From Planctomycetia bacterium (GTDB taxonomy: Bacteria; Planctomycetota; Planctomycetia; JALXBF01; JBGPMX01): DNA of 64,000 bases. Positions within the stretch are counted from its first letter, which is position 1; every line of letters begins with the position of its first letter. The notes beneath the pieces are model-generated. The model worked only from the letters and a program-made list of their open reading frames with translations. It was not told the DNA's origin and made no database searches. Positions 3,109 through 64,000 of this stretch are shown here, in pieces. The stretch is from positions 6,152-70,151 of the forward strand of contig DAIOWH010000003.1 in NCBI GenBank assembly GCA_036758585.1. The letters are read 5' to 3'. Position numbers and translations under genes: made by a program.

Positions 3109-3193
3109 AAGTCGTCCCGACGCGGCCTGTCGTGCATGGTCGCAAGGCGGGGATGCGTGACCGGGTTCAGTTCGAGGGGAAGAAGACGTCACC

Positions 3194-3198
3194 GAGGT
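3194..3198 (+). promoter_or_regulatory. Shine-Dalgarno GAGGT, 6 nt upstream of ATG 3205
   Basis: accGAGGTaagctcATG; same GAGGT core also precedes the second giant gene. Confidence 0.5.
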
Positions 3199-3204
3199 AA
3201 GCTC

Positions 3205-12200: not shown

Positions 12201-15200
12201 CGGCCCGCGGTTCGGTCGGCCCGCCGCGGGCGACTTCGACCTCGACTTCCACCTGTTCGGCGCGGCCGGACCGCTGCGCAGCGACGGCACCGATCAGATC
12301 GTGGTGTACGGCAGCGAGGACTACGACGGCGACGGCTCGCGAGACGCCAGCCTCACTGTCGATGGTTTCACCTTCGATGAAGACGTCAACGGCGACGGCG
12401 ACGTAAACGATTTCGTCTGGTACGTCGATCTCAATCAGAACCGCCGGTTCGACAGCCTGACGGAACGCATCGTGCCGAACCTGGTGAACGAGAACACGTC
12501 GAACAACACCGCAGCGACCGCGACGCCGATCGCGACCCGCCAGATCGGCCAAGGCGCGCTCACGGTCACCGACGTCGACTTCTGGGCCGCGTCGGGAGCG
12601 ACCGCCGGACAGCTTGTCTTCGCCTACGTCGACACGCAGCTTTCCACCAGTAGCACCGACTCGCGGCTGAGCGTGGTCGCCAACAACGGAACCACGGTGG
12701 TCGAGGCCGACGACAACGACGGGCCGGGTTCGCGGGCGGTCGTCGCCGGCGCGGTGGTGCCGCAGGCGGGCAAGGTGTTCTACCAGGTGGATGAACCGGT
12801 CGGCGCCGCAATCGGTTCGTATCAGCTCTACAGCACGGTCACGTCCAGTTTGGGGTTCACCGCTGAAGTCGATCCCAACGGCACGTCGGCCACGGCGACC
12901 GCCTTGAGCGGCGACGAGCTGAAGGGAAGCGGAACGGTTGGCGTCGGCGACGTCGACTTCTTCTCGTTCCAGGCGCTGGCCGGCAGCCGCATCGTCGCCA
13001 TCGTCGATGAGAATCCGGACGACGACGCAAGCAACACGACCGTGGCGATCGAGCTGCGCGGTCCCGACGGGACGACCGTGCTGGCGTCCGGGGACAATGC
13101 GGCGGGCGACGCCGAGGCTGCGGGCGCGGTCTTGTCGGTGAGCCAATCGGGCACGTACTTCCTGCGCGTCGCCGAGGTGGCCGGCAGCGCCGACACGGAG
13201 TATCGCTTCGTCGTACTGGTGTACGACGTGAACCAAAACACCGCTCAGTTGCCGTACATCGGCGATTTCGACGGCGACCGAGCGGCCGATCTGGGCACGT
13301 TCCAGCCCAAGGCGACGCTGACCCCAGACCCAACCGGTTCGGCCAACGACCTTGTGACCTTCACGGCGCGCGAGCCGGGCACGGCGGGCAATAACCTGCG
13401 CGTGCAGTACGTCGCGCAGGTGACCGATGGCGCCGCCAGCGTGGCGGTCGCGGGCAACGATATTACGATCACGCTGGCACGAACGGGCGGCGTGAACATG
13501 ACCGCGGCGGCGTTGGTCCAGTTCCTGCTCACCGATTCGTCGGCAGGCGCTCAGGCGGCGCGGCGGCTGGTCGATGTCGCGGTCGCGCGTGGCACGAGCG
13601 GCGGCGACGCGCTCGGCGCGTTCGGCCCGACCAACCTGACCGGCGGCGGCACTCTGCAGTTCGATCGCGACGGCAACCGCACCAACGATCCGGGCGAGAC
13701 GACGACGGCCGCTTCGACCCCCGCCACTCAAGGCGCCGACGCGGCGTTTGGCGTGCCCGGCCGCTGGGAGCACGATGCCGGCGAGTTCCTGGTCGGATCG
13801 AACGTCCAGGACCTGACGCTTTCGGACCTGGACAACGACGGCAACCTCGACCTCATCGCCGTCAGTCGCGACTCGTTTGCGACCACGTCGACGGTCAGCG
13901 CGGCGACGACCGACTTGGCGGGCGTGACAATCCGCTACGGCACCGGGCGCGGCGGGTTCGAGCGGACCGAACAGCGCTGGACCGCGGGCGTGGCGCCGAT
14001 GGCGGTCGCCGTGGCCGACATGAACGGCGACGGGCTGGGCGACATCGTGGTTTTGAACACGCACGATGTGAACCCGACCGACAACTCGGCGGGTAGCATC
14101 AGCGTGCTGCGCAACCAGGGCGCTCGGTCGTTCGTGCGCGACGACCCGAACACGAACCCTGCGGGCCTCCAGGCGTGGCAGACCGGCGGCGTCGCCCCGC
14201 GCGACCTGGTGCTGGGCGACTTTATTGCCATCGACCGCACCACCGGCGCGACCATGCTCGGCCGCGACGGTTTCCCCGACGTCGCCGTGGCCAACTTCGG
14301 CAACCCCGACCCGAACAACCTCGACGCCTGCACCTCGTTGTCGTGCAACGTCGCGGTGATGCCAAACCGGACCGGTTTTACCGGCACGACGCCGGGCGCG
14401 GTCATCACCTTCCCGGCGGGCGGCGGGGCTGTGGCCACGCCCGTGCCGGCCTACACGCGCAACAACCGCCCGACGTCGATTGCCGCCGCCGACCTGAACG
14501 GCGACGGCTATCTCGACCTGGTGACGGCCAACGCCAGCGACATTGCCAACACCAACGGCACGACCGTCACGGTGCGGCTCGGCCAAGAGAACGGCTCGTT
14601 TATCGTCAATGATCTGGACACGAACACGACCTCGACGACGCAGCACTCCAGCCTGAGTCCGTTCGGGCAGGACCCGGCGGGCATCGCGGTGGCGACCGAG
14701 GTTCAGCCGCTGTTTGGGTTCCGCCAGACCGGGGCGGGCAACACCGCCGTGCAGGCGCAGCGGGTCAATCCGGTAAACGCCCAGTCGACGAACATCCCGG
14801 GCGCGACCCAAGACGTCATCGTCCAGGGCTCGGCCCGCATGCCCGATGGGCTGAACAACCAGGCGTTTGTGTTGGCGCAGAATGAGCGTCAGACGATCAC
14901 GCTCGCCTTCGCCACGGGATCGGCCACCTACACGCTGTTCTTCATCAATCAGGTCACCGGCCCGATCGCCGACAATGCGTCGGCGGCGACTGTGCAAGCG
15001 GCGCTCGAGGGGCTTTCGACGATCGGGGCGGGCAACGTGTCGGTAACCGGCCCGAATGGCGGCCCGTACACGGTGGACTTCCAGGGTGCTCTTGCGTCGC
15101 AAGACGTTCCTCAGCTTGTGGCGACGCCGACGGCGCCGCTTACGGTCACGGTCGGCGCGACCCGCGGCGGCAGCGCCGCCACCGACGCCGGCCGCATTTA

Positions 15201-48873: not shown

Positions 48874-51800
48874 ATGACGAGACCAGGGTCCGTGAACCGG
48901 CCTCCTCACTTGAAGGCGAAACGGCGGACACCGCGCAAGAGTTCCGGCCAAGGCATGTCTTTGGAACGGCTGGAAGAGCGCGTACTGTTGGCGTTGGATA
49001 TTCCGGAAGGCGCCCACCCCATTTTCGCGCCAGGTACTCCCCAGGAGTACATGGCGCAGCATCCTGATCACTTCCGAGAGAACGGGCTGCCTGGCGGGGC
49101 GCTCGGATTCACATTCAACGACGTGGACCGCTGGTCTCAGACGGCCACCGACGGCGCCGGGCTGAACCAGGGCGACCCCACAACGCTGACATGGGGCATC
49201 ATTGCCGACGGAACACTGATCAACACCGGCGCGACGAGCAACCTGATTGCTCGCATGGGCACCATTTACGGCAGCGTGGCGGGGCCGGTCAACGCCCAGC
49301 CGTGGTTCACGGTCTTCCAACAAGTCTTCGATAACCTGCAAGCGAACTCAGGTATCGACTATGTCTACCACGCGGCCGACGATGGCGTTCAGATGACGAA
49401 CGCCAATCGCGGCATCTTGGGAGTGCGCCCCGACATTCGAATCGGCGGTGCGAATATTGACGGGAACTCTGGCACGCTTGCCTATGCCTTTTTGCCGAAC
49501 TTTGGCGACATCGTCATCGACACCAACGACAACTTCTTCAACGACACCGGCGGCAACTCGCTGGGTTTTCGCAATGTGCTGGCTCACGAAGAGGGGCATG
49601 GCGTCGGACTCGGTCACTCTTGTCCGGTCGATCTGACGAAGCTCATGGAGCCGACCGTCACGTTCGCGTTTGACGGCCCGCAACATGACGACCTGTTGGG
49701 GATAAACCGCGGCTACGGCGATCGCCTGGAACCGAACGACAACACACTTTTTGCGACGGACCTGGGCGTGCTCAACGGGACGACTGCTTCCCTGAGCAAC
49801 GTCACCATCGACGACGATTCGGACCTCGATCTGTTTCGCTTCAGCGCCACAGGCCCCACCACGACAACCGTCACCGTTAACCCGTTTGGGTTCACCTACC
49901 CGTCGGGGCCCGAGATCGCGACCAGCACCTGTGGGGCGAACAATCCGAACTTCGACTCACTGAATCAGAGTGACCTGAGTCTGGAGATACTCGACAGCAC
50001 CGGCGCGATCATCGCCAACGCCAACGCCAACGGTCTGGGCGTGGGCGAGAACCTGGCGAACGTGACGTTGCCGGCGGCCGGCGACTATTTCGTGCGACTG
50101 CGTGGGGCCCAGAATGCCGCTCAGTTCTACACGCTCAGCGTGAACGTGGCCCAGTCGGCTACGGGCGGCGGCAAGAGCGGCAGCACCGTGCAACTGACGT
50201 CGGTGACGGCCGATGACGTGTTGAACACGCCGCGCGACACGTTCGGATTTGTGCTGCGCCGCAGCGAGATCGACGCGCTGGGAGGGCAGCCGGCCCTCGA
50301 TATCCGCGACCCCGTGTTGTTGCCCGACCCGGTGAACGACATCAAGGCGTTTACCGTGTTCTTCGACGGCGCACTCGACCCAATCAGCGCCGAAGATGAG
50401 GCGAACTACGACCTGCGCAGCACCGGCAATCCGGTGACCGCGTCCGATGATGGGCTGTTCGATACCACCGACGACTTCCAGTACCACGTCACTCCGCGCT
50501 ACATCACGACGCTCGACAACCCTGAAGACCTCGACACCAACCCCGACCCGGCCGTCGTGCTTGAAGTCCAGCTTCCGGCGGGACTGACCGAGTTCCCGTC
50601 CGGGCGGTTCCGTCTGACGGTGCGCGGCGGCGACCCGGTGCTGGGCGCCAACAACCTGCCGATTAACTCACAGGACGCGGGACCCGATGAAGTGTTGTAT
50701 TTCAAGACGGTTCATCGCCCCACGGCGCAGCCGCCCGACGGAGTGACCGCGAACGTCTATGTCGACGTGACCAACACGACGGCGCCGTTCCTTGGCACAA
50801 GCGCCGATCCGTTCAATGACATCCAGACCGGATTGAACGCAGCGGCGCCCGGCCAGACGGTGTTGGTGCGGTCGAACCTCGCCAGGGTCCCCTACGTTCA
50901 GGACGATCTGGCAAACGACGGCGTGCAGGATTTCGACCGCAATATCACAGTGCCTGCCAATGTTCGGCTGGTGTTCCAGCAGGGCGCGATCGTAAAGCTG
51001 CGCGATGCGATCATCGACGTGTCGGGTGCGAATGCGCAACTCGACGCGATTGGCACGTTCGACAACCCGGTCGTGTTCACCTCCTTTGCCGATACGCTGC
51101 CCGACACCGGCGCTCAGACCGGCGCGCCGAAGGCTGAAGACTGGGGCGGAATCGTTTTCCGCGCCGGCTCGGATAGCGCCGGGTCGCGGATAGAGTTTGC
51201 CGAGATACGCTACACGGGCGGCGAGGTCGGCAGCGTGCGCTATGGCGCGGTGCACGGCCTGACTTCCCAGCCGACGGTCACGAACACCATCATCACCAGT
51301 GCGGGGCAGGCCGCGTTCAGTTTCGACTTGTTGAGCTTTACCGGCACGGGTCCATCGCTCGCCGGCAACTTCCTGGAACGCAACACCATCAACGGCGTGC
51401 TCGTGGTGATCCCGCAGGGGACCACGGTGTCGAACGTGCCTGGCCAAGCCGTCATGTTCGATGACCCGATCGACCACGTCTTCACCCAAAGCCTGACGAT
51501 TCCCGGCGGGGCCAGCGTAACGACCAGCAATACGAACCTGAAACTGTCCAAGGCCGTCATCGATCTGCGCGGCGCGGCCGCAGCAGGAACGCCGTCATCG
51601 CTTACGGCCATCAACACCCACTTCACGTCGATTCAAGACGACACGACCGGTCGGACCGCCGACGAAGTGGGCAACCTGCAGACCGACGCCACCGGCAACG
51701 GCAGCGTGCTGGCGCCGCAGCCTGGCGACTGGGGCGGCATCGACGCAACCACCGACGATCCGACGCTGCCCCTCGGTCCGTCGCTGACCATTCTGAGCGA

Positions 51801-54800
51801 TGTGGACAACGCTGGCGCGCTGGCGGGCCAGATTCAGCCTGATCCGGCGCTCTCGCGTGTGGCCTTCGGCGCGGGCACGTTCCTGCGCGGCGGGTTTCCC
51901 CAGATCATCCGCGGGAACATCGACTACGGCGAGACCTTCGCCAACGATGGCAACTTGGCAGACTCGCACGGCAACACGATCAACATTCAGGGCACGACCA
52001 TCGCGTCCAGTTTGTCGGCGGGGCTGTTCCTGACCAACGCGGGCGGCGTGTTTCAGGACAACGATTTCCTGAGCAACAGCGACGCCGCAATCTCGATCGA
52101 CACCACCTCGTTCCACATCCTGCGCGACCCGGTGTTCCGGCGCAACATCACGCAGGGAAACCAACTCAACGCGCTGGCGATCCGGTCTGGGACCTTCGGC
52201 GGTGGTGCGGACCGCCTCTACGAGTTCAACGATCCGGACATCGTACACGTCGGCAGGGGCAACCTCGCGATCAGCGACGGTTCGGGGCTCGCCGTGCTCA
52301 CACTCCATCCGGGAGTCGCCTTCAAGGCTCAGTCGGGCGCGGGGCTGACGGTGACAGGCGCCGACTATCGCACCGCGTTCAACAATGTCGGCAACGGAGC
52401 GCTGGTGCTGGACGGCGACCCTGACGGTGCGCCGTTCCCCGGCAAGCTGGTGGGGCGATTCACCACGTCGTTTGCCGGCCTGAACAACGACTTGTCGTTC
52501 ACCGCGCGGGAACCGCTGCCGCGCGGGAACTTCACGATTCGGTTTGTGGCCACCGGTGCGTTGAGCGCCTCGGTGGTTCCAGGAGCGGGCATCGGGGGCG
52601 CCGATCGCATTGACATCACCATCGCAGCCGGTACGACCACTGCGAAACATGTGCGCGACGTGGTACTTCGTACGCCGCGCGTAGCGGCCGTGCTCGACGT
52701 CGCGCTCGCGGCCGATTCCGACGGCACCGGCCTGGTTGCCGCCCTCGCCGAGACCGCGCTGCCGTTGACTCCAGACGAATCGCCGCGCCCGATCCAGTTG
52801 ACCACGATCGCCGACGATTCGATCGGGCCTTCGGTGTTTCGGTTCGGCCAGGATGGCCGGCCGGGCCGAGCCGGCGTCGATGACGACGGCGATGGCTTGA
52901 CCGACGAGGGCGATGAGCTTGGGACCGCGGCCAGCGACGACGAGGCCGTTCCGCAAACCGACGCGCAGGGCAATGGAAGCAGCACGCCCACGGCAGCCGA
53001 CTTCTGGACCGGCCTCAATTACAGCTACTTCTCCAATGATCTCGTGCCCGAACGAGACATCAACGGCAACGGTGCGCTCGACCCTTGGGAAGACCTGAAC
53101 TCGAACGGCGTGTTCGATCAGCTTGAAGAAACGCTCGACTGGCGCACGAACAATACGGCTGGACTGGACATCGGCGAGGACCACGACCAGGACGGCGTGC
53201 TGGAACGCATCGTAGGCAACGTCGCCAACTTCATCGAAGTTCGGTTTGCAACCAACGGCATCCTGCACGAAGGACCACGACACAGCGCCACACTGGCCGA
53301 CTCGCACGATGGCGAACTCGGCGCCACAGGCGTCAACGAGAGCATCGCCACCGCGACCCCGCTGGGCAACATCGGCGGACGCGACGGCAATGATCAGGTG
53401 CCGTCGTTCCGGACCCCGAACCGCGCGCTGCGGGCGACCGGCAACATTGCCTCCGGCGCCGATGTGGACTTCTGGTCGTTTACGGCCAACCCCGGCAGTA
53501 CGATCACCATCGACATCGACCACACCACGACCCGTTGGGCCGGCGACAATCACCTCGACCCGATCGTCTCGCTGTTCTACGTAAAGCGCGACGATCCGGG
53601 CGCGGGCAAGTTGATTCTCTGGGCCGTCGCCAACAATAACGACTCCGCGGTGGACACGGTTCTGGATCCCCTCGAGCAAGACGACACCGATCCCGCCCTG
53701 ATCAACATCAACGTCCCGGGTATCGCGGCGGTCGACGACACCTACTACGCGGCCGTCACCGCGTTCAACAACCTGCCCGATTTCTTGTTCGCGCTGCCGC
53801 TCAGCGGCCCGGACATGCAACTCGCCAACTACGCCTGCACTGCGCGGCCGGACGGCGGGTTCGACGTCGTGGTACTTGACTTCGACGCGATTCGTTCGGA
53901 CGACACGTTCGACGAGAATAATGCGGTCGCCACGAACTGCCCGGGCCTGACCGGGCCTAACACAGGAGGGGGCGACAACGTCGGACAGTATTCGCTGCTC
54001 ATCCGTGAAACGCAGCGCGACATCGTCTATCCGAGCGGCTCGTTCGAGGTTACCAACAGCCAGTTTCGCAACATCACGGGCGACGCCGTTCGTATCGCCA
54101 CTCCGGCCGACCCGACCATGCGCGATCGGATCGCGCCAGCCGTTCACACCGGTGGTAACACGGCGCTGCCGACCAACGGCACCGGACCGACGCTGCTTGC
54201 CACCGGGGCTCGCATTGAGAACAACGAGTTCGCCAACATCGGCGACGACGGCGTGGAGCTGATCGGCGATCCGGGCGCCGGCCGCTCCATCCGGCACGAC
54301 TGGGTGTTGAACAACACGTTCTTCAACACCGGTACGGGCCTCGACCTGCGCAGCCGACTGGGCGCGACCGTGCTCAACAACATTTTCGCCGACGTGACCG
54401 GCACCGCGATCGCCAGCGACGGCACTTCGGCAGTGGGGTTGGGTGCAGGCACCGACAGCCTGGTCGTGTCGAACAACTTGTACCACTCGAACGGCGCGAA
54501 TGGCTTGTTGGGCACTGTGTTCTTCCCGAATCTGCAATCGCCTGCGAGTGATCCGCTGTTCTTCGATCCGACCGGCTTGTTCCCCGACCTGCGCATCACC
54601 GATAATTCGGCGGCGGTGGACAGCAGCCTGAGCGATCTCGAAGACCGCCTGGGCAACGTGCGTTTGTGGATGGGGGTGGACCCAAGTTCGCCAGTACCCG
54701 TTGGCGGCCTGAGGCCGGAGTCGCTGCTGGTCCCCGAACGTGTGGGACGCGACACCGCGTTGGACCGCAACCAGATTGAGCGCATCGATCTACCCGAGCT

Positions 54801-57800
54801 TTCGAACCCGAATCTCGGCTTGGGTGAGGATCCGTTCTTCGATATTGGCGCCAACGAGGCGACGGATTTCCTGCCGCCGCAGGTAATCCGATTGGGCCTC
54901 GCGCCGCAAAGCGACACCGGCGAAATCAACGAAGTCGAACCGCTGCGCACGCGGCAGTCGCGGCCAACCTTCCGCGGACTCGTGGTTGATTTCACCGAGA
55001 CTGTGGGACGGCCGGAGCTGGACGAGGTAGCCGGCCTGCAGGTGGACATTGACGTGGATGGCGATGGCTACGACGACGGCGCCGCGACGACCAGCCTGTT
55101 CTTCGACCCCGAAACCGGTTTTCCGGTGTTCTATAACGTCCGCAACAACGGGCTGGTCGTGGTGCGCGAAGTCAGTCTGCTGCCGACGGGCGCCGAGTTT
55201 CGACGCGTCGGCGTGTTCGAGGTTCAGTCAACGCTTGATATTGTTGACTCGGCCGACCTGACCATTCGCGCGCGTGTGCTCGACAAGGCCGGACGGTCAT
55301 CGGCCGACCGACCGTTGCGCATCGCGGTCGATACCGTGCGACCGGGGGTTCAGACCGTCACGTCGAGCCTCAGTTCGTCGGACCTGGTCATGGAGTTCGA
55401 CGAGCAGGTGCTGCTGGCCGGCAATAACCTTCAGGAGAACCTACAGCTCGAGGTGACGACCGGCGCGGCGGTCACGGCGGCGCCCGACCTGGCCAACGCG
55501 GCCCTTGTAGGCAACAGCGGCGGCGCGGCGGGCGACCTGTTCGGCACACAGCACACAGTGAATGACTTCGTCATCGCGCCGCTTCCAGTGGCCGGGTCCG
55601 ATGGTGCAGCCTTCTTCCGTGGCCCCTTCAACAATACAACGGGCGCCGATCGGCCCGTCATCACCGTCAACGAAACATCGGGCGCGAACCTGGACCTCGC
55701 ACCGGGGCGACTCTTCGAATTCCCTGGCCCAAACAACGACCTGTTGATTACCGGGCGCGGCGCGCTGCCCGACGACACGGTGGTGTCGGTCGAGTTCCGC
55801 CACGTCGCGCTGCCGAATCAGCCGCTGGGCGTGAGCGTCGTTCGCACCCAGGCGTCGTTGCCCACCGCGCTGGCCGGCGTGGACAACGACATCGTGTTCA
55901 CGGCGCACCCGACGAACTTCCCCGGCTCGGCGGGCAACGCACTGCGCATCGAGTATCGGGTCGCCGGCCTGAACACACCGCTCACCGTGGCGGTGAGCGG
56001 CGCCGCCATCACGGTGAACGTCGCGACCAACGCGACCGGCCAACCGACTAGCACGGCGGCCCAAGTGCGCGACGCGGTCAACGCAAGCGGGGCGGCCAGC
56101 ACGCGCGTATCCGCCGCACTGGCGTCGGGCAACAGCGGCACCGGCGTGGTCGCCGCCCTGCCCACCACGAGCCTCAGCGGTGGACGAGACGCCATTGGGG
56201 TTACGCTCGACACGGACGGAGCAGGCGCCGTCGATAGCACGACGAGCGGGCCGAACGCCGCCACGACTGTCCGCGACGCCATCAACGCCGCGGCCGGCAC
56301 ATTGGTAACCGCCTCGCTGACGCCGACCGACACGGGCGCCGCCAACACCGGCGCCGGCGCCGTCGCCGCGCACGCCGCCGCACCAATGAACACGGGCGAG
56401 TTCACCATATCGCTCTGGACGTTCATCCGCGACCACGGCGCCGGTCCGGGCGTGAGCAACGTCGATTTCCTGTCGCCCACGCGCCGCCCGCTGGCGACGA
56501 AACGCGACGCGACAACAGGCCAGGGTTGGTCGCTGGTGCTCGAGAACATCCCCACCGACTCGCCGGAGCAATTTCTGGTGTTCGAAGTGTACGACGCCGC
56601 CGGCGCACGTACGCACCGCATTCAATCGACCAGCGCCGTGCCGTCGAACCAGTGGGCGCATGTCGCCCTGTCGTATAACCCGGTCACCGCTGAGTGGCGG
56701 TTCCATCTGCTGCAATCCGCCTCCACCGTAATGGACCCGGACGGCGACGGCGCGGGCAACGACCGCCTGCACTTCGTGGCTGCTCAACCGGGGGCGATCG
56801 GCAACAGCGTATCGATCGACTACACGTTGGGGGCGGCCGAGCAAGTGTTCGTCACCGGCAGTGCGGTCACGGTGCAGCTCGTGGCCGGCACGACGACCGC
56901 AAACCGTGTGTTGCAGATGGTCGCCGCCGACCCAAACGCCTCGCAACTATTTGTCGGGCGTTTGGCGCCCGGCAGCAACGGAACCGCAGCGATAAGCCGG
57001 GCCGTGGCGACACGGTCGCTGACGGGCGGTCAAGGCCCTGCGGTGGTCACATCCGGCGAGACGCGGGCCGAGGTCACGATTGGGGCGGCGGCGTCCGCCG
57101 TCCGGTTCCAGGCGGTTCAAGCGGGCGCGGGCGGCAACGCGATTCGGGTTCAGTACACTGCGGGCGGCACGGCCCAAGTTTCCGTTGCCGGCAGCGACGT
57201 CACCGTGCAGGTGACGGGAACCACGACCGCGGCCCAAGTCGTGCAGTTGATCAACGCACACACTCAAGCCTCGCAACTGCTCCTTGCCCGGTTGCCTGAT
57301 GGATCGATCGGCGGCGGGCTAGTCGGCGCGGTTGGGTTCACGTCGCTCACCGGCGGCGTGTTCCCGCTCTCGGCGGCGACCACGGGCGACCTGCTGATCG
57401 GCGCCGAGGCGGTCCCGGCGGCGTCGGCCACGTTCGACGGGTTCATCGACGAAGTACAGATATGGAACCGCGACGTGTCGCTGGACGAAATCAGCCAGCT
57501 TCCGAGCGCGGAGCTTCCGCGAGCCATCGCGGTGCGCAACGTAACCGGAAGCAATCAGGACCTGCCGATCGTCGCCGTTTCGCTGACGACAGTGGCTGGC
57601 CGCACTCAGGTGACCGCGACCGTCGACGGCGATCCGACGACCGCCGGCGTTCAAGTCCTGCCGCGCGGCAATGTGTACGAGCTGGAAGTATTCGCCCAGC
57701 CGACGCTGACCGACGTGGCGGGCAACCGCATCAACGGTCGAGTCATTGCGTTCGGTGTGGGCGAGGACGTCTTCGACCTGAACACGTCGCAGTTCAACGC

Positions 57801-60800
57801 GCCCCCCGAGTTCCCGCTCGACCCGAACGGCCGCAATGACGCGCCGACCACGAACGTGTTTACCGATCTTGGCACAACCGCCCACCGCGCCGTTGTACTC
57901 GACTTCTCACAAAGCGATCTGACGGTCACTCCAGTCTCGGCGGCCCCGGCGCTGCCGGCTGACGAAGATTGGTTCCGCGTAGATGTGTTGGCTGCCGGCG
58001 AGTTCACGGCGGGCCTCACGGCTCGCGACCCCAACAACGACGGCGTGCTGAACGCCGACGAAGGAATAGTGGTCGAGGTGTTTCGAGCGGCCGACACAAC
58101 GACTCCGGTCGCCGCGGCCACACCCAGCCAAGTCGCCACGGCGACTCGGACTTCCGCGGTCTCCGTTTCGGCCCGCGAGCTGCTCTTCTTGCGAGTGCGC
58201 ACCGACGACGGCGACGACTTCAATCGTTATGAGCTGGAGTTGATCGTCAACGATTTGTTTGACGCGGCGGCCGGCTTCACGCTGCCGCCGGCCACAGGAC
58301 CGTTGCCGATCGACCTGGCGGGCCGGAACGATGACGCTCAAGCAATCATGGCGGCTACGCTGATCACAGCGTCGCTCGCCCCAGGCAATTCGGGGGCGGG
58401 CTTCGTGGCGCCGCTCGACTTCCCGCTGGCCGGCGGAGTCGATACGCCCGCCACACAGGCGACTCTCACCACCAGCGTGGCCGGTAACGACAACGACCTC
58501 GTGTTCACCGCAGTACCAGTGGGCGCCGCCGGCAATGGGATTCGCGTGCGGTATGTGAACGCCGGCGTCAATCAGCCGCTGGGCGTGACAATCGATGTAG
58601 CGAACCGCATCATCACGGTTAATCTGGCGACGAACGGCGCTGGCACAGTAACGACGACCGCCAATGACATTCTGCAACTGTTGCAGGTGCGAGCGACCGA
58701 CCTGGGCGGCGTCGCCGATCGCTCGCTCAGCGACTTCGTGGGCGGATCGGACCTCACCATCGCGGTCGACCCGGTGAGCGGCGCGCCCGACGTCGACTTT
58801 TATCGCATGACAAGCACGGCGGTGGGCACGCTGTCGCTGTTCATGAACGTGCGCGACCCGAACGGCGACGGCCAACTCGACGACGGCCTGGCCAGCGGCC
58901 GCGATGAACGCATCGACCTGGCGATCGTCAGTCCCGCCGATCCGTTGGGTGCGGCGCTGGCGACGGCGACGCAGTCGGTCCTGTCGCCGTTCCTGTTCGA
59001 GATTGTGAATCAGTCGGTGAGCACGGTCGGCCAGGAGTTCTGGGTCCGTGTGCGCGGCACGAGCGCTGAGTCGGCCAACGCCTACGACCTCCGAATGGTG
59101 AACGATGATCGGTTCGAGTTGGCCGCGTCTGTGGCGCCGGTCGGCGACGGCATTTTGCCGGACGATCCGGACGGTCGCAACGACGTGGTCGCCGCAGCCA
59201 CCGACTTGGGCACGGTTTTCACATTCGCCGAAGACGACCTAACGATCACGTTGGGCGACGGCGTGGTTCGCGATACCGACTTCTTCCTCTACACTGCGCC
59301 CGACGACCTGGTGTTCAACGTGTTTGCGGACGTAGCCGACATCAACCGCAACGGCGCGCTCGACGCCGCCGAGACGCTTGGCCTCGAAGTGCTCGACCCC
59401 ACGGGCACGACCGTACTGGCCACCGGGTCGGTGTTCGGAACGTTCCCCGGCAGTGTGATTGTCGATTCGGGGTTTGTTCAGCTTGCGTCGGGCCAGTCGG
59501 TGCTGATCCGCGTGTTCGGTTCGGCCGGTGTCGCCAACAGCTACGATCTGCGGGCCTTGGCCGACGACCGGTTCGATCATCCGTTCCGGTCGGGCACGGT
59601 CGCGAAACCAGGCGGCGTCGATCCGGCCGGTCGCAACGACTCGTCGGACGACGCCAGCGGCGCTGGGGCCGATGATGTACGGCGCACCGATTTGGGTACG
59701 GTCGTTCACCTGACCGAGAACTTCCTGCGTGTTTCCGACGAAGACAGCCACAATTTCCTGTTCACCGCACCGACGCCGGCGGCGGGTCTCGACGGCCAGA
59801 CGCTCACGATCGACGACGGACTGAACCCGCCGACTATCTTTGAGTTCGACAACAATGGCAGCACGGCGCTGGGCCAGGTGGGAGTGAACTTTGCCGCGTT
59901 GACGACGGCCGATGAGCTGGCCGCAGCGATCCGCAGCGTCATCAACGGGATCGGTGCGGCCCTGAACGCAACGGCGTCGGGCAGCGGCTCGCAGGTCGCC
60001 GTGTCGAGCGCGATCCGCGTCGTGAGTGGTGCGTTCCCGATCGCCGCGGCGCACGACGGCGATTGGTTCCGCGTGACGGCCGCCGTATCGGGTGCGCTCG
60101 GCATCCACGTAGACCTGATCGACGCCGATCGCAACAACCAGATCGACGCCGTCGAAATCCTCGGACTCGAACTGTACGAACTGGACCCAATGACCAACCG
60201 GGCGGGCGATCGGCTCGCGGTTGGCGTGCTCGACGTGGTGAGCCGTCAGGTTCGTATTGACGGCTACCCTGCGATGGACGGCGAATCGTTCCTGGTGCGC
60301 GTCCGTGAGGGTGTGAACTTGCCCGTCGCCGCCGTGTCTGGCGGGGCGACGGTGACGTGCAATCTACAGCCGTTGGGGCCGCCAGCGCCGGCCCCCGTTG
60401 GGCAACCAAACGACGACCTTTCGAGTGGGCCGTTCAACCTTGGCTTCACGTTCGAGTTCTTCGGCAACAACTTTACGCAGTTCTTCGTGAACAATAACGG
60501 CAATATCACGTTCACCGCGCCGCTGTTCTCATTTACGGCAACGGGCTTTCCGAACCCCTTTGGTATTGCGATGGTGGCCCCGTTCTGGGCGGACGTCGAC
60601 ACCCGCGGTGCGGGTTCCGGCCTGACGCGACTGCAACAAGGCACCAACCCATCGACCGGGCGACCGTTCATCCAGGTGGACTGGCCCGATGTCGGATACT
60701 TCAGCAGCAACGTTGACAAGCTGAACGACTTCTCACTGTACATCGAAGATGATCCGTTGGGCGACCTCATCTGCTTCGACTATCGCGATATGGAATGGAC

Positions 60801-63800
60801 AACGGGCGATGTGTCGGGCGGCACCAATGGGTTTGGAGGTACGGGCGCCGCTATTGGTTTCGATGCGGGCGATGGAGTGAACTTCATCAGTTTGGGCCGA
60901 CCCAACGATGCGACCGGAGTGGCGGCGTTTGCGAACCGGACTGAGGTTTTCGTGCTTGGGCCAGGCGGTGTGCCGGGAGCGCCGCCGAGTCCGCCGCCGC
61001 CGGGAACGGTCAACGCGTCGAATGACGGCGGCAACGACCAGGTTTCGCCTGCCGCCGCGATCAATCCGCTGGACACCCGGGACGTCGCGTCTGTCGTTCA
61101 AAGTGTGGACAACAACACCGGTGCATCGGTGGTGGATGTCCTCGCGTCGAACGACGGCGGCCTGACGTTCACACGCACGCGGTTTACATCTACGTTTGAC
61201 GCGCTCGGATCGGGTCGTCGTTCGAGTCCCGACGCGGTGTTCGACGCCAACGGGAACCTGTACGTCGCGTACGCATTCGATAATGGAACGACGCGTCGAG
61301 TCGTGGTGACACGCAGCACCGACCAGGGCCTGACGTTCAGCGCGCCTGCGTTGCTTACTCCACTAGGGGCCGGGGCTGTTCCCGAGACAGTCTCGGTCGC
61401 GACTGGCCGCGACGTCGTGAACCCGAACCAGCAAAACGTATTCGTCGCTTGGAGTGAAGTAGGCGGCGGTACGGGACTCGGCCAGCGCATCGCTGTAGCC
61501 GGCGCGGCGGCATCGACCCCGGGTGGCACGATCAACCCGTTCAGTTTCACGGTCACCAAGGACGCATCGTCCAATGCAGCGACCGGTCAACAACCGCGCA
61601 CGCCCGACATCGGCGTGGACCGCGCCGGACGGGTCTTCGCCACGTGGACCGACTACGGGTCGAGCCCCAACCCGATTCGTCTCGCACGGGACGATAATTT
61701 CTTTGGAACCGGTCTGGCGGGGTTTGGTTCGGCCAGCGTGGTGACCACGAACCACGTCGGGTTCCGGCGATCGGTCCCAGCGCAGCCGCAGCGCGGAGTC
61801 AGTGCCAGTCCGTCGATTGCCATCGATCGCAGCGATGCGGCCGATCCCGACTTCGGCCGGAATTCCGGGCGAATCTACGTCGCGTACACCGAAACCGGTC
61901 TGGACGGCGTCGGGGACCTGGACACGTTCCTGCGCTTCTCGGACGATGCCGGCGCCTCTTGGAGCCGCCCACAGCGGATCAACTCGCAGAACCGGGCGAG
62001 CCAGTTCAATCCTGCGATCACCGTCGATTCGACCACGGGACATGTTTTTGCCGTCTGGCAGGACACACGTCGCGATGTGGCGAACACCCTCGCCGAGCCG
62101 TTCATCGCACAGAGCATCGACGGCGGGCTGAACTTCCAACTCGACGTGGCACTCGCCACCGCGCCGTCTAGTCAGGCGGGGAATGCCGAACCGATCGAAG
62201 ATTTCGGCGATCGGATGGGCATTGCCGCGGCCAGTCATGTCGTGTTCGCCGCATGGGCCGACAACACGGCTCAGGCTACGGATTTGGAAACACTCACGAA
62301 CCGGCTGGTGCAGGTGGGCGGGCGCAATTTCTACAACCTGACGGTCGACAACTCCGATCGGCGTGAGTTGCAGACGGTGGACCGTGAGTTCGACGCGACA
62401 CTGAACTCGGGGAACCTCTTTGCATCCACCGACGGCGTCGCCGGCATCGGAGTCGCCGGGCCGCTCGCCACATTGGACGAGTTCACCGGCGCGGGGACCG
62501 TGCAGACTGAGATCGATACGCTGCCGGCGTTCGTTCAGCGCGTCGCTGGGGCGATTGGCGATATCGACTTCAGCCCAACCGGCGAATTGGTGGGCGGAAC
62601 GGCCTTCGTCAGTTCCGCACAGCCTGGCGAGACGCTAGTGTTCGTCGATCCGGACACCGGCCTCGTGTACAACCAGGCGACTATCACCGGAGTGGGACTG
62701 CCGCAGAGTTTCTCGGTCACCGCGCTCGAGTTCCAACCGGGCAGCGGCACGCTGTTCGTCGCCTTGGACTTTGATCCGGGGACCAAGGGATCGCCGTCGC
62801 AGTTGGGTACGATCAACGTCGCCGGTTGCGGCGTGGGAACTTGCACGGTCAACTTGCTGGGCCAGACGAACGTCGGCGAGATAGGCGGGCTGGCGTTCAA
62901 TCCGGTCAGCGGCGAGCTCTACGGCGTCACGTCGACCAGCGTCGGTGGCGGCGACTTTGTCGTGCTCAGCACAACGACCGGTGCGGCCATCTCGACGGTG
63001 CCGTCGGGCCGCCGCGACTACACCGGACTCGAATTCTCGCTCGATGGACTCGCGCTCTACGGCGTGCTGGGGCCGGATGAAACCATCGGCGCCCCCGGTG
63101 ACCTGGTGTCTATCGATCCGTTCACCGGCCAAGCCGGCACGATTGGCGCAACAAGTCTGATCGATCCGCGCACGGCCGGCCCATTGCCAAACGCGATCAG
63201 CGGCATCAGCTTCCGACCGCGGCGCAACGAGCGGCCGCAAGCGGGCACGGGCGGCGGCCGCTTGGCTCAGGTCACGGAAGCCGACATGACGCTGCTCGAA
63301 GGCGAAGAGGATTGGTATCGCATTCAGATGCCGGTCGCGGGCGGGTTGACCGTACGGCTGGACCTGCCCGACTCCGTACCAACCGATCGAAACTCGGACG
63401 GCCGAGACAACGACGGCGATACGCTAGTCGACGAGGGCGACGAGTTCGTGTTTGGCTTCCTCGACGCTCAAGAACAACTTGGACTCGAACTGTACGACAG
63501 CACCGGCGCAGTCCTGCTGGCCACGGGCGTGGTCGACGACCTGGCCGCGGTCGACGGCAGCGGATTCGGCGTGTTCATCGACCACCAATCCGTCACGCCG
63601 GTGGCAGGCGCCGTAGACCCATTCCTTTTGGTTCGAGTGTTCGGCGCCGCCGGATCGTTCAACGAATACGACCTGGTCGTAAGGAACAACGACCGATTCG
63701 ACCAGGCTTTGGTCCCGTCGGCCCTGTTTGGGTCGGACGCGGCCGGCCAGCTTGTGACGGTTAATGGCAGCACCGGGCTGACCACCGCCGTCGGGCCACT

Positions 63801-64000
63801 CGCGCCAGTGCCGACCGACATCGAATTCCATCCGCGCGATGTACTGTTCGGCGAAAGTCGGGCGGCGGCAGGCAGCTTCAACAATCTGCTCCGAGTTGAT
63901 CCCGCCACGGGCACTACGACGGTGGTGTGTGCGGCCGCGCCGTGCGACAACACGGTGTTCGCCATTACGGCGCTGGAGTTCGATGCGACGGTCGGTTCGC
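48874..64000 (+). CDS. second giant multidomain protein (5' partial in window: >=5,042 codons, no stop before window end) with N-terminal metzincin zinc-metalloprotease head
   Basis: frame-1 reading from ATG 48874 remains open to position 64000 (verified at the motif sites and window end; absent from ORF track because no stop in window); alternative start ATG 48955 (MSLERLEERVLL...); domain vocabulary parallels gene 1. Confidence 0.85.
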   Translation, partial: MTRPGSVNRPPHLKAKRRTPRKSSGQGMSLERLEERVLLALDIPEGAHPIFAPGTPQEYMAQHPDHFRENGLPGGALGFTFNDVDRWSQTATDGAGLNQGDPTTLTWGIIADGTLINTGATSNLIARMGTIYGSVAGPVNAQPWFTVFQQVFDNLQANSGIDYVYHAADDGVQMTNANRGILGVRPDIRIGGANIDGNSGTLAYAFLPNFGDIVIDTNDNFFNDTGGNSLGFRNVLAHEEGHGVGLGHSCPVDLTKLMEPTVTFAFDGPQHDDLLGINRGYGDRLEPNDNTLFATDLGVLNGTTASLSNVTIDDDSDLDLFRFSATGPTTTTVTVNPFGFTYPSGPEIATSTCGANNPNFDSLNQSDLSLEILDSTGAIIANANANGLGVGENLANVTLPAAGDYFVRLRGAQNAAQFYTLSVNVAQSATGGGKSGSTVQLTSVTADDVLNTPRDTFGFVLRRSEIDALGGQPALDIRDPVLLPDPVNDIKAFTVFFDGALDPISAEDEANYDLRSTGNPVTASDDGLFDTTDDFQYHVTPRYITTLDNPEDLDTNPDPAVVLEVQLPAGLTEFPSGRFRLTVRGGDPVLGANNLPINSQDAGPDEVLYFKTVHRPTAQPPDGVTANVYVDVTNTTAPFLGTSADPFNDIQTGLNAAAPGQTVLVRSNLARVPYVQDDLANDGVQDFDRNITVPANVRLVFQQGAIVKLRDAIIDVSGANAQLDAIGTFDNPVVFTSFADTLPDTGAQTGAPKAEDWGGIVFRAGSDSAGSRIEFAEIRYTGGEVGSVRYGAVHGLTSQPTVTNTIITSAGQAAFSFDLLSFTGTGPSLAGNFLERNTINGVLVVIPQGTTVSNVPGQAVMFDDPIDHVFTQSLTIPGGASVTTSNTNLKLSKAVIDLRGAAAAGTPSSLTAINTHFTSIQDDTTGRTADEVGNLQTDATGNGSVLAPQPGDWGGIDATTDDPTLPLGPSLTILSDVDNAGALAGQIQPDPALSRVAFGAGTFLRGGFPQIIRGNIDYGETFANDGNLADSHGNTINIQGTTIASSLSAGLFLTNAGGVFQDNDFLSNSDAAISIDTTSFHILRDPVFRRNITQGNQLNALAIRSGTFGGGADRLYEFNDPDIVHVGRGNLAISDGSGLAVLTLHPGVAFKAQSGAGLTVTGADYRTAFNNVGNGALVLDGDPDGAPFPGKLVGRFTTSFAGLNNDLSFTAREPLPRGNFTIRFVATGALSASVVPGAGIGGADRIDITIAAGTTTAKHVRDVVLRTPRVAAVLDVALAADSDGTGLVAALAETALPLTPDESPRPIQLTTIADDSIGPSVFRFGQDGRPGRAGVDDDGDGLTDEGDELGTAASDDEAVPQTDAQGNGSSTPTAADFWTGLNYSYFSNDLVPERDINGNGALDPWEDLNSNGVFDQLEETLDWRTNNTAGLDIGEDHDQDGVLERIVGNVANFIEVRFATNGILHEGPRHSATLADSHDGELGATGVNESIATATPLGNIGGRDGNDQVPSFRTPNRALRATGNIASGADVDFWSFTANPGSTITIDIDHTTTRWAGDNHLDPIVSLFYVKRDDPGAGKLILWAVANNNDSAVDTVLDPLEQDDTDPALININVPGIAAVDDTYYAAVTAFNNLPDFLFALPLSGPDMQLANYACTARPDGGFDVVVLDFDAIRSDDTFDENNAVATNCPGLTGPNTGGGDNVGQYSLLIRETQRDIVYPSGSFEVTNSQFRNITGDAVRIATPADPTMRDRIAPAVHTGGNTALPTNGTGPTLLATGARIENNEFANIGDDGVELIGDPGAGRSIRHDWVLNNTFFNTGTGLDLRSRLGATVLNNIFADVTGTAIASDGTSAVGLGAGTDSLVVSNNLYHSNGANGLLGTVFFPNLQSPASDPLFFDPTGLFPDLRITDNSAAVDSSLSDLEDRLGNVRLWMGVDPSSPVPVGGLRPESLLVPERVGRDTALDRNQIERIDLPELSNPNLGLGEDPFFDIGANEATDFLPPQVIRLGLAPQSDTGEINEVEPLRTRQSRPTFRGLVVDFTETVGRPELDEVAGLQVDIDVDGDGYDDGAATTSLFFDPETGFPVFYNVRNNGLVVVREVSLLPTGAEFRRVGVFEVQSTLDIVDSADLTIRARVLDKAGRSSADRPLRIAVDTVRPGVQTVTSSLSSSDLVMEFDEQVLLAGNNLQENLQLEVTTGAAVTAAPDLANAALVGNSGGAAGDLFGTQHTVNDFVIAPLPVAGSDGAAFFRGPFNNTTGADRPVITVNETSGANLDLAPGRLFEFPGPNNDLLITGRGALPDDTVVSVEFRHVALPNQPLGVSVVRTQASLPTALAGVDNDIVFTAHPTNFPGSAGNALRIEYRVAGLNTPLTVAVSGAAITVNVATNATGQPTSTAAQVRDAVNASGAASTRVSAALASGNSGTGVVAALPTTSLSGGRDAIGVTLDTDGAGAVDSTTSGPNAATTVRDAINAAAGTLVTASLTPTDTGAANTGAGAVAAHAAAPMNTGEFTISLWTFIRDHGAGPGVSNVDFLSPTRRPLATKRDATTGQGWSLVLENIPTDSPEQFLVFEVYDAAGARTHRIQSTSAVPSNQWAHVALSYNPVTAEWRFHLLQSASTVMDPDGDGAGNDRLHFVAAQPGAIGNSVSIDYTLGAAEQVFVTGSAVTVQLVAGTTTANRVLQMVAADPNASQLFVGRLAPGSNGTAAISRAVATRSLTGGQGPAVVTSGETRAEVTIGAAASAVRFQAVQAGAGGNAIRVQYTAGGTAQVSVAGSDVTVQVTGTTTAAQVVQLINAHTQASQLLLARLPDGSIGGGLVGAVGFTSLTGGVFPLSAATTGDLLIGAEAVPAASATFDGFIDEVQIWNRDVSLDEISQLPSAELPRAIAVRNVTGSNQDLPIVAVSLTTVAGRTQVTATVDGDPTTAGVQVLPRGNVYELEVFAQPTLTDVAGNRINGRVIAFGVGEDVFDLNTSQFNAPPEFPLDPNGRNDAPTTNVFTDLGTTAHRAVVLDFSQSDLTVTPVSAAPALPADEDWFRVDVLAAGEFTAGLTARDPNNDGVLNADEGIVVEVFRAADTTTPVAAATPSQVATATRTSAVSVSARELLFLRVRTDDGDDFNRYELELIVNDLFDAAAGFTLPPATGPLPIDLAGRNDDAQAIMAATLITASLAPGNSGAGFVAPLDFPLAGGVDTPATQATLTTSVAGNDNDLVFTAVPVGAAGNGIRVRYVNAGVNQPLGVTIDVANRIITVNLATNGAGTVTTTANDILQLLQVRATDLGGVADRSLSDFVGGSDLTIAVDPVSGAPDVDFYRMTSTAVGTLSLFMNVRDPNGDGQLDDGLASGRDERIDLAIVSPADPLGAALATATQSVLSPFLFEIVNQSVSTVGQEFWVRVRGTSAESANAYDLRMVNDDRFELAASVAPVGDGILPDDPDGRNDVVAAATDLGTVFTFAEDDLTITLGDGVVRDTDFFLYTAPDDLVFNVFADVADINRNGALDAAETLGLEVLDPTGTTVLATGSVFGTFPGSVIVDSGFVQLASGQSVLIRVFGSAGVANSYDLRALADDRFDHPFRSGTVAKPGGVDPAGRNDSSDDASGAGADDVRRTDLGTVVHLTENFLRVSDEDSHNFLFTAPTPAAGLDGQTLTIDDGLNPPTIFEFDNNGSTALGQVGVNFAALTTADELAAAIRSVINGIGAALNATASGSGSQVAVSSAIRVVSGAFPIAAAHDGDWFRVTAAVSGALGIHVDLIDADRNNQIDAVEILGLELYELDPMTNRAGDRLAVGVLDVVSRQVRIDGYPAMDGESFLVRVREGVNLPVAAVSGGATVTCNLQPLGPPAPAPVGQPNDDLSSGPFNLGFTFEFFGNNFTQFFVNNNGNITFTAPLFSFTATGFPNPFGIAMVAPFWADVDTRGAGSGLTRLQQGTNPSTGRPFIQVDWPDVGYFSSNVDKLNDFSLYIEDDPLGDLICFDYRDMEWTTGDVSGGTNGFGGTGAAIGFDAGDGVNFISLGRPNDATGVAAFANRTEVFVLGPGGVPGAPPSPPPPGTVNASNDGGNDQVSPAAAINPLDTRDVASVVQSVDNNTGASVVDVLASNDGGLTFTRTRFTSTFDALGSGRRSSPDAVFDANGNLYVAYAFDNGTTRRVVVTRSTDQGLTFSAPALLTPLGAGAVPETVSVATGRDVVNPNQQNVFVAWSEVGGGTGLGQRIAVAGAAASTPGGTINPFSFTVTKDASSNAATGQQPRTPDIGVDRAGRVFATWTDYGSSPNPIRLARDDNFFGTGLAGFGSASVVTTNHVGFRRSVPAQPQRGVSASPSIAIDRSDAADPDFGRNSGRIYVAYTETGLDGVGDLDTFLRFSDDAGASWSRPQRINSQNRASQFNPAITVDSTTGHVFAVWQDTRRDVANTLAEPFIAQSIDGGLNFQLDVALATAPSSQAGNAEPIEDFGDRMGIAAASHVVFAAWADNTAQATDLETLTNRLVQVGGRNFYNLTVDNSDRRELQTVDREFDATLNSGNLFASTDGVAGIGVAGPLATLDEFTGAGTVQTEIDTLPAFVQRVAGAIGDIDFSPTGELVGGTAFVSSAQPGETLVFVDPDTGLVYNQATITGVGLPQSFSVTALEFQPGSGTLFVALDFDPGTKGSPSQLGTINVAGCGVGTCTVNLLGQTNVGEIGGLAFNPVSGELYGVTSTSVGGGDFVVLSTTTGAAISTVPSGRRDYTGLEFSLDGLALYGVLGPDETIGAPGDLVSIDPFTGQAGTIGATSLIDPRTAGPLPNAISGISFRPRRNERPQAGTGGGRLAQVTEADMTLLEGEEDWYRIQMPVAGGLTVRLDLPDSVPTDRNSDGRDNDGDTLVDEGDEFVFGFLDAQEQLGLELYDSTGAVLLATGVVDDLAAVDGSGFGVFIDHQSVTPVAGAVDPFLLVRVFGAAGSFNEYDLVVRNNDRFDQALVPSALFGSDAAGQLVTVNGSTGLTTAVGPLAPVPTDIEFHPRDVLFGESRAAAGSFNNLLRVDPATGTTTVVCAAAPCDNTVFAITALEFDATVGS
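48958..48996 (+). other. N-terminal 'LERLEERVLLALD' motif after basic leader
   Basis: MTRPGSVNRPPHLKAKRRTPRKSSGQGMSLERLEERVLLALD. Confidence 0.6.
49000..49700 (+). other. metzincin (matrixin-like, M10-type) zinc metalloprotease catalytic domain
   Basis: HEEGHGVGLGH = HExxHxxGxxH (codons 49585-49617) followed by Met-turn 'TKLMEPT'; no PRCG cysteine-switch seen. Confidence 0.75.
49720..50150 (+). other. PPC-like domain immediately after the metalloprotease
   Basis: 'RLEPNDNTLFATDLGVLNGTTASLSNVTIDDDSDLDLFRFSATGPTTTTVTV.....YFVRLRGAQNAAQFYTLSVNV' matches EPND..A..l / D.D.(Y/F).F PPC pattern. Confidence 0.55.
50740..52450 (+). other. parallel beta-helix region I (homolog of gene-1 7200-9480)
   Basis: 'VVFTSFADTLPDTGAQTGAPKAEDWGGIVFRAGSDSAGSRIEFAEIRYTGG' parallels gene-1 motif. 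Confidence 0.45.
52873..52920 (+). other. thrombospondin-type-3-like Ca-binding motif
   Basis: GVDDDGDGLTDEGDEL; same DGLTDEGDE core at gene-1 39760-39825 and at 63385-63450. Confidence 0.4.
53950..54700 (+). other. parallel beta-helix module II (homolog of gene-1 23160-23900)
   Basis: NNEFANIGDDGVEL, NNTFFNTGTGLDL, NNIFADVTGTAIA, SNNLYHSNGANGL ... DPLFFDP....ITDNSAAVDSS. Confidence 0.5.
55860..56350 (+). repeat. module A copies in gene 2
   Basis: 'DNDIVFTAHPTNFPGSAGNALRIEYRVAGLNTPLTVAVSGAAITVNVATNATGQPTSTAAQVRDAVNASGAAS....GNSGTGVVAALPTTSLSGG'. Confidence 0.55.
57340..57540 (+). other. LamG-like (Laminin_G_3) domain C-terminal portion
   Basis: 'FDGFIDEVQIWNRDVSLDEISQL'. Confidence 0.5.
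60400..60960 (+). other. NIDO-like domain
   Basis: 'FNLGFTFEFFGNNFTQFFVNNNGNITF.....GIAMVAPFWADVDTRG.....FIQVDWPDVGYF......FSLYIEDDPLGDLICFDYRDMEWTTGD' (APFWADVD codons 60577-60600). Confidence 0.6.
61000..62300 (+). other. BNR/Asp-box beta-propeller
   Basis: LASNDGGLTFTRT, TRSTDQGLTFSAP, RFSDDAGASWSRP, AQSIDGGLNFQLD; 'TNHVGFRRSVPAQPQRGVSASPSIAIDRS'. Confidence 0.65.
62400..63240 (+). other. unassigned beta-propeller-like module (gene-2 copy; another begins ~63710)
   Basis: '...DIDFSPTGELVGG...LVFVDPDTGLVY....SVTALEFQPGSGTLFVALD....EIGGLAFNPVSGELYGVTS....LEFSLDGLALYGVLG....GDLVSIDPFTGQAG....ISFRPRRNE'. Confidence 0.4.

Follow-up and report, generated by a model that had tools for sequence, protein, structure and literature searches.

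What is a zinc-protease signature doing near the beginning of a bacterial protein more than 5,000 residues long? The question is raised by a 64,000-nucleotide stretch of DNA from a Planctomycetia bacterium (GenBank assembly GCA_036758585.1, contig DAIOWH010000003.1, positions 6,152 to 70,151; hereafter the window), in which an initial annotation made from the letters alone had pointed to a matrixin-like zinc-binding site and Met-turn in a giant protein. The motif lies in an open reading frame (ORF) on the forward strand that starts at ATG 48874 and reaches the end of the window (64000) after 5,042 codons, none of them a stop, so that it encodes more than 5,042 residues. The description 'in a giant protein' is right for this ORF, but the giant in question is not the 15,175-residue product of the ORF upstream (3094–48621, +). 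We assign a probability of about 0.7 to the explanation that a genuine matrixin-like metzincin domain has its catalytic zinc site in this motif, and that the domain works, once secreted, as an active zinc endopeptidase that stays tethered to a giant extracellular protein.

The zinc site and its matrixin-like domain

Translation of frame 1 of the forward strand around the zinc motif reads RNVLAHEEGHGVGLGHSCPVDLTKLMEPTVTF (in a longer read, FRNVLAHEEGHGVGLGHSCPVDLTKLMEPTVTFAFDGPQHDDLLGINRGYGDRLEPNDNTLFATDLG). The consensus HEEGHGVGLGH (49585–49617, +) has the exact H-E-x-x-H-x-x-G-x-x-H spacing first reported and aligns residue by residue with HELGHSLGLSH of matrix metalloproteinase 1 (MMP-1). 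Counting from ATG 48874, as is done here unless stated otherwise, the alignment identifies His238, His242 and His248 as the predicted metal ligands, Glu239 as the predicted general base and Gly245 as the turn residue; Ser249 directly follows the third His and is itself followed by Cys250. The Met-turn was also correctly recognised, and begins just past the end (49640) of the interval given for the site and turn: Leu257-Met258-Glu259-Pro260 (LMEP; 49642–49653, +) aligns to LMYP of MMP-1 and, in the phmmer alignment, KLMEP (49639–49653) pairs with ALMYP. Across an alignment of relatives (A1), the L, M and E of this turn are at least 90% conserved and the P is invariant. The extended HExxHxxGxxH motif occurs once in all six frames of the window, in which HExxH is found three times in total; the matrixin-headed ORF has one HExxH in its frame and no second metzincin site. 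A chance motif was excluded, given an expectation of 3.5e-5 from the composition of the two giant ORFs (20,217 residues, His 0.8%), its absence from all 2,000 residue shuffles of those ORFs, and the significant Pfam match described below.

The domain that carries the motif (approximately residues 84–283; 49123–49722, +) bears out the matrixin-like label. The Pfam Matrixin model (PF00413; gathering score 24) scores 38.2 bits against the first 509 residues and 40.7 bits against the isolated domain, whereas the next metzincin models are far lower, at 13 bits for M66 and 12 bits for the Reprolysin models; with scores of at most 13 bits, other metzincin families were ruled out as the Pfam assignment. 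In a phmmer search of all PDB sequences, every match was an MMP catalytic domain; that of MMP-1 was the strongest (9e-8), aligned between the S-loop and helix C. A profile made from 32 relatives matched MMP-11, MMP-2 and karilysin (3e-12 to 5e-11), and with it the aligned part reached back as far as about residue 30 in the catalytic domain of MMPs. NCBIfam holds no family for either the head or the body, except for a weak match resembling a type IX secretion system (T9SS) tail at 17 bits. The PVC-metallopeptidase of polymorphic toxins was considered and ruled out, its signature being a different one (HExxHxxQ-E).

A structure prediction, proposed as a check alongside the initial annotation, was run with AlphaFold2 on residues 28–438 using the relatives' alignment, and gave an MMP-type catalytic fold followed by a fold of the PPC or collagen-binding domain (CBD) type. 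The mean predicted local distance difference test score (pLDDT) is 82 and the predicted template-modelling (TM) score 0.80, with pLDDT mostly above 85 across the catalytic domain. That domain is modelled as the five-stranded sheet and three helices of an MMP, and Foldseek matched it in the PDB to MMP-7, MMP-3 and matrilysin with target-normalised TM scores of 0.64–0.69 overall and 0.65–0.69 for MMP-7 and MMP-3, a probability of 1.0 and about 20% identity. In model numbering, which starts from the Met at 48955, a helix at 199–216 bears H211, E212 and H215 and is followed by a turn at G218, then H221 and a further helix. The predicted secondary structure around H211, H215 and H221 fits canonical zinc-site geometry.

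The resemblance to the MMPs (MEROPS M10A; MMP-1, MMP-7, MMP-11) therefore extends over several features named in the alignments and the model: the HExxHxxGxxHS motif, a Met-turn placed six to eight residues past the Ser that follows the third His, a helix C with the pattern DD..GI...YG, and the arrangement of sheet and helices. In addition, residues D175, G176 and D198 of an MMP-1 calcium site align to the family-invariant D169, G170 and D189 (family-alignment numbering), so that one MMP-type calcium site is probably kept in the head. There are also clear differences. Where MMP-1 has its structural-zinc ligands (H168, D170, H183 and H196), the head has Ile, Ile, Tyr and Val, and the family consensus in the relatives' alignment likewise lacks these ligands. 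The head has no hemopexin domain and no PRCGxPD cysteine switch, carries an extra helix and longer loops in its N-terminal half, and is continued by a PPC domain and then by more than 4,600 residues of body. The absence of a PRCG switch had been noted from the outset; indeed, no Cys of any kind precedes the zinc motif within the ORF, the first being found two residues after the third His.

Directly after the catalytic domain, as had been claimed, comes a PPC or collagen-binding-type beta-sandwich (residues 285–427; 49726–50154, +), which starts with EPNDNTLFATDLG at about 49729. The Pfam PPC model (PF04151) scores 23.1 bits on this domain, below its gathering score of 25.9, but exceeds that threshold in relatives, several of which are annotated with PF04151 (61 and 45 bits in L017 and L018, two of the loci described below). 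The fold is present in the model, with the top Foldseek matches being the CBD of ColH (3jqw), the PPC domain of a Bacillus anthracis collagenase (5sv5) and the CBD of ColG (1nqd and 2o8o), at TM scores of 0.72–0.78 and E-values of 1e-7 to 2e-5. As well as the fold, the domain shares an N-terminal E-x-N-D motif with the clostridial collagenase CBD/PPC domains. Unlike them, it adjoins an M10-type rather than an M9 domain and has a predicted disulfide to the catalytic domain. A phmmer search of the two giants for further copies of this PPC domain found only the one in the head.

The predicted disulfide would link Cys250 (49621–49623, +), two residues after the third zinc-binding His, to Cys353 (49930–49932, +) in a loop of the PPC domain. 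These are the only Cys residues in the first 1,600 of the ORF. An inter-domain bond is probable because the two residues co-occur in relatives: both are present in 71 and both absent in 13, and no complete ORF has one without the other, the two discordant cases (L067 and L079) each breaking off at a contig end short of the PPC Cys. Together the catalytic and PPC domains make up a head at residues 84–427, close to the N-terminus of the protein.

A common cassette with an uncommon N-terminus

The head belongs to a large family, as judged by sequence comparison. A word-indexed protein search found 45 relatives with 35–57% identity, all of at most 424 residues, and many of these combine PF00413 and PF04151 with a PEP-CTERM, T9SS or RTX tail (two carry RTX repeats). 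Their NCBI name is 'matrixin family metalloprotease', although one has been automatically labelled 'serralysin' by the Joint Genome Institute (JGI). HMMER was then run exhaustively against 1.84 billion cluster representatives: 2,060 head clusters passed E <= 1e-3, of which 1,192 also passed E <= 1e-30, and the best match was 53% identical. In nearly all of the matches listed, the whole 380-residue cassette aligns, and it almost always begins within the first 150 residues. Among the best 150 representatives, 54 are at least 1,000 residues long, with tails of up to 3,665 residues, and the head is N-terminal in almost all. Genomes of the Genome Taxonomy Database (GTDB) contributed 176 relatives from Planctomycetota, Verrucomicrobiota, Acidobacteriota, Phycisphaerae and other phyla (best 49% identical).

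We fetched 80 related genomic loci (given L-numbers). HExxHxxGxxH is kept in 80/80, and a stricter pattern that includes an [LI][LM][EN][PA] Met-turn recovers all but three (L010, L061 and L072). This conservation, together with the near-invariance of the catalytic residues in alignment A1, argues for retained catalysis. In most loci the ORF runs for 190–900 residues beyond the motif. It continues for 2,000–2,300 residues in L002, L017 and L037, and for more than 3,500 residues, off the end of the fetched DNA, in L001, L018, L024 and L034. A second HExxHxxGxxH appears some 740–870 residues downstream in L001 (~13112), L005 (~13199), L017 (~12803) and L024 (~2911). In the closest long relatives this second site has the pattern HE[IL]GH.LG.[GE]H and comes with weak Reprolysin_3/4/5 Pfam matches and a further PPC domain, and it is reprolysin-like in the two loci where it was scanned (L001 and L017). 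The bodies of the long relatives have one weak match to the body in the window, at 24–33% identity, over a single beta-helix-like module. A rough neighbour-joining tree of the heads is star-like and poorly resolved, and suggests that long and short forms are interleaved. In several Holophagae and Acidobacteriota loci (L010, L015, L031, L033 and L061), the gene for a different HExxHxxGxxH protein (HELGHNFGSRHTHCY) lies upstream of the matrixin-PPC one, at a distance of about 1 kb.

From these comparisons, the matrixin-PPC cassette is a common secreted protease unit that bears very different C-terminal extensions, and the head in the window is a member of the 'matrixin family metalloprotease' family of Planctomycetota, Verrucomicrobiota and Acidobacteriota. 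It shares with those proteins the two-domain cassette, the FAPGTP pro-segment, the HE.GHG.G..H..CP....TKLMEP signature and the Cys pair. Most of them, however, are 400–900 residues long and have both a classical signal peptide and a Cys just ahead of FAPGTP, whereas the window copy has an N-terminus of the type LExLExRxLL and a tail of more than 4,600 residues, compared with at most 3,665 among the best 150 representatives. Since relatives carry signal peptides and PEP-CTERM, T9SS or RTX tails, the head appears to be a working exo-protease unit and not one specific to giants.

The N-terminus of the ORF (48874–48996, +) consists of a basic stretch, MTRPGSVNRPPHLKAKRRTPRKSSGQG, followed by LERLEERVLLA (48961–48993), and has no hydrophobic signal-peptide core. 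The closest Planctomycetota relatives begin in the same way, with 25–40 residues rich in Arg and Lys and then [FL]ExLExRxLL[AST], about 200–220 residues before HExxH (L002, L003, L004, L005, L006, L007, L009, L013, L017 and L018). We placed the start at ATG 48874 because of this likeness and because a GAGG lies 8 nucleotides 5' of it. The upstream 15,175-residue ORF also opens with a basic stretch and FALERLEERVLLS, the motif lying at approximately 3385–3420 (+). Verrucomicrobiota and Acidobacteriota relatives have ordinary signal peptides instead. Neither Pfam nor NCBIfam has a model that matches the LExLExRxLL region, and searching the literature for the motif by literal string or keyword found no paper. 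The arrangement may be a lineage-specific export tag that replaces the signal peptide.

Between this N-terminus and the catalytic domain lies a pro-segment motif, I-F-A-P-G-T-P (residues 50–56; 49021–49041, +), which is conserved in relatives as [FWY]-A-P-G-T-P at 175–205 residues before HExxH, and which here lacks a preceding Cys. The form C[FWY]AP[GD]T is found in 41 loci, those with classical signal peptides (for example L010, L012, L014, L025 and L034). The Cys is absent from 8/8 loci of the LExRxLL type, from the window (GAHPIFAPGTP) and from six other loci, and Cys-less loci often carry a His three residues before the aromatic residue of the motif. Where present, it is the odd, third Cys beside the disulfide pair, in a context unlike a lipobox. 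Our hypothesis is that CFAPGTP is a candidate cysteine switch, unlike PRCGxPD, an idea for which Cys23 of mirolysin offers a precedent (PMC8259862). If so, the lineage represented in the window has lost the switch.

What the head would cleave

In the proposed mechanism, His238, His242 and His248 would hold the catalytic zinc, Glu239 would act as general base by polarising a water molecule, and Met258 of the LMEP turn would pack under the metal. The catalytic domain would be a pared-down bacterial form of the MMP fold, lacking the structural-zinc ligands and the cysteine switch, and the PPC module, probably stapled to it by the disulfide, would serve in binding substrate or matrix. Export would probably depend on the basic and LExLExRxLL N-terminus. 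Placed at the N-terminal end of an exported Planctomycetota protein of more than 5,042 residues, the head would then cut external proteins (of matrix, particles or prey surfaces) bound by the modules of the body. Action on external substrates is favoured because the same cassette occurs on hundreds of short proteins made up of a signal, the head and a sorting tail.

Several observations weigh against this explanation. Zinc binding and activity, like the disulfide, the export route, latency and the substrate, are matters that we infer. The PF00413 match spans only profile positions 64–159, the N-terminal half of the domain being divergent. There is no recognisable signal peptide, and export is assumed from the relatives and the N-terminal motif. 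The AlphaFold2 model has low confidence in the pro-segment, the part that would bear on latency, and the C-terminus of the ORF, which would bear on anchoring and orientation, lies beyond the window. Nor does the present evidence separate external substrates from the giant itself.

This last point matters for the idea that the head is a self-processing or 'releasing' peptidase which, after export, cuts its own giant precursor or the 15,175-residue neighbour into functional pieces. PPC domains are often removed during the maturation of secreted proteases (PF04151), which counts in favour of such a role. So does the presence of proteases of different classes at the head of both tandem giants, which fits if any protease suffices. 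For giant proteins of Omnitrophota, West-Roberts et al. (2023, bioRxiv 10.1101/2023.11.21.568195) proposed that S8 and C39 peptidase domains at the N-terminus cleave autocatalytically. The likeness to the Omnitrophota giants lies in an N-terminal protease on a protein of more than 5,000 residues from the Planctomycetes-Verrucomicrobia-Chlamydiae (PVC) superphylum, and it extends to the S8 head of the upstream ORF; the matrixin-headed ORF differs in its metzincin catalytic class. Against self-processing, the same head is found on hundreds of short proteins (about 400–900 residues) to which no more than a sorting tail is added, leaving nothing for it to process; the PPC domain is similar to collagen-binding modules directed at external substrates; and cleavage sites are not identifiable from sequence. 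We consider self-processing unlikely, although it is the main rival of the external-substrate explanation.

A second alternative, which we regard as improbable, is that the head represents another metzincin family (serralysin, M10B; snapalysin, M7; or reprolysin, M12B) and that its likeness to MMPs reflects no more than the core shared by all of them. The restriction of the Pfam match to the C-terminal 60% of the matrixin model would be in keeping with this, as would the missing structural-zinc ligands and cysteine switch, the single relative labelled 'serralysin' and the two with RTX repeats. The gap between the Matrixin score and those of M66 and the Reprolysin models argues otherwise, however, and the family profile covers MMP chains from near residue 30 up to their ends, with no serralysin among its best 60 PDB matches. 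Moreover, the residue after the third His is Ser, as in MMPs, rather than the Pro of serralysins (a Ser that the head family at large does not keep, V, T or N often taking its place), and the serralysin beta-roll is absent, with no Pfam match to Peptidase_M10_C or HemolysinCabind in the first 509 residues.

It is highly improbable that the head has lost catalysis and is now a binding module derived from a protease, or that the ORF is a decaying pseudogene: Glu follows the catalytic Glu where the family consensus has His, and a signal peptide is missing, but that position varies in the nearest relatives (A, V, L, I or T), the signature residues H, E, H, G, H, M and P are all intact, and the frame is open for more than 15 kb.

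A bacterial comparison is provided by karilysin of Tannerella forsythia (PDB 2xs3, 2xs4 and 4r3v), which was among the top profile matches (3e-11) and is likewise a secreted matrixin-type enzyme without a cysteine switch and with a C-terminal non-catalytic domain. Karilysin keeps the MMP structural zinc, has an Asp-switch in a short propeptide and, rather than heading a giant, is a T9SS cargo of 472 residues. The literature that we searched held no description of a matrixin head on giant proteins. The enzyme family itself is common and already named; its setting on a giant protein is the unusual part, and not an unprecedented architecture. What the locus adds is that a compact matrixin-PPC cassette, normally a secreted enzyme of 400–900 residues, also heads proteins thousands of residues long. 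The evolution and latency of metzincins could also be studied with the head family, which offers a minimal MMP scaffold without structural zinc and a motif that may be an alternative cysteine switch.

Two tandem giants and their bodies

Beyond the head, the body of the matrixin-headed ORF (50155–64000, +) contributes at least 4,615 further residues and is open at the end of the window. It holds beta-helix regions, Laminin_G_3, a NIDO (nidogen-like) domain (68 bits; ~60480–60895, +), a BNR/sialidase-like region and about six copies of an unannotated repeat of approximately 100 residues. The combination of NIDO, Laminin_G_3, matrixin and BNR/sialidase-like domains in one bacterial protein recalls the domain set of the animal extracellular matrix.

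The upstream 15,175-residue ORF (3094–48621, +) has a Peptidase_S8 head (152.9 bits, residues 267–534) and paralogous body modules. After the S8 domain come BNR-like, FG-GAP, Laminin_G_3 and NHL regions, with 16 Big_13 Ig-like domains near the C-terminus, and no recognisable C-terminal anchor was found in the protein. The two giants share modules, most clearly at 45% identity over 1,045 residues (4019–4996 of the matrixin-headed ORF against 11357–12343 of the upstream one), and many other stretches are shared at 25–42% identity. The ~100-residue repeat is common to both, with the pattern GNALRIEYRVAG…ITVNVATNA.G..TSTAAQVRDAVNAS…GTG.V; in the matrixin-headed ORF it lies at residues 1202–1296, 2335–2437, 2626–2719, 2743–2828 and 3146–3300, and in the upstream ORF there are 13 copies between residues 1164 and 12853. 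Pfam has no family for it, the best match being to DUF6456 at 16 bits, below threshold. Three in-frame stops follow the upstream ORF (its own at 48619–48621 and two more), and a 252-bp gap separates the two ORFs; a promoter and terminator scan of this gap gave nothing above background.

By comparison of their translations, the two giants in the window are tandem paralogues whose protease heads belong to different catalytic classes. The protease head looks like a designed feature of these giants, because the paralogous neighbour carries its S8 protease at the same position. Together with the use of the matrixin-PPC cassette on proteins thousands of residues long, these adjacent paralogues of different catalytic class provide a concrete, testable handle on the question of whether the proteases of giants act externally or on the giant itself.

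A broader and more speculative reading takes these features jointly, and we put it forward as a possibility that is itself doubtful. Planctomycetota-type giants would follow a common plan of a non-classical export tag, an interchangeable protease 'warhead' and a binding stalk. The tag would be the basic stretch with LExLExRxLL and the stalk a long, rapidly reshuffled body, while the warheads would include the subtilase of the 15,175-residue protein, the matrixin-PPC cassette of the protein of more than 5,042 residues and, in relatives, a matrixin with a second, reprolysin-like domain. The candidate switch CFAPGTP would have been lost and latency placed under a new control, which might be the His at -3 of the motif or else the tethering. 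If true, such proteins would form a distinct class of tethered extracellular proteolytic machines for the degradation of particles, matrix or prey.

Two further genes lie upstream of the giants. The first (63–1442, +) has a twin-arginine-like N-terminus, RREFLQAGSLGALGL, and presumably resembles a DUF1501-type protein; the second (1492–2475, +) encodes a PD40/TolB-like beta-propeller protein.

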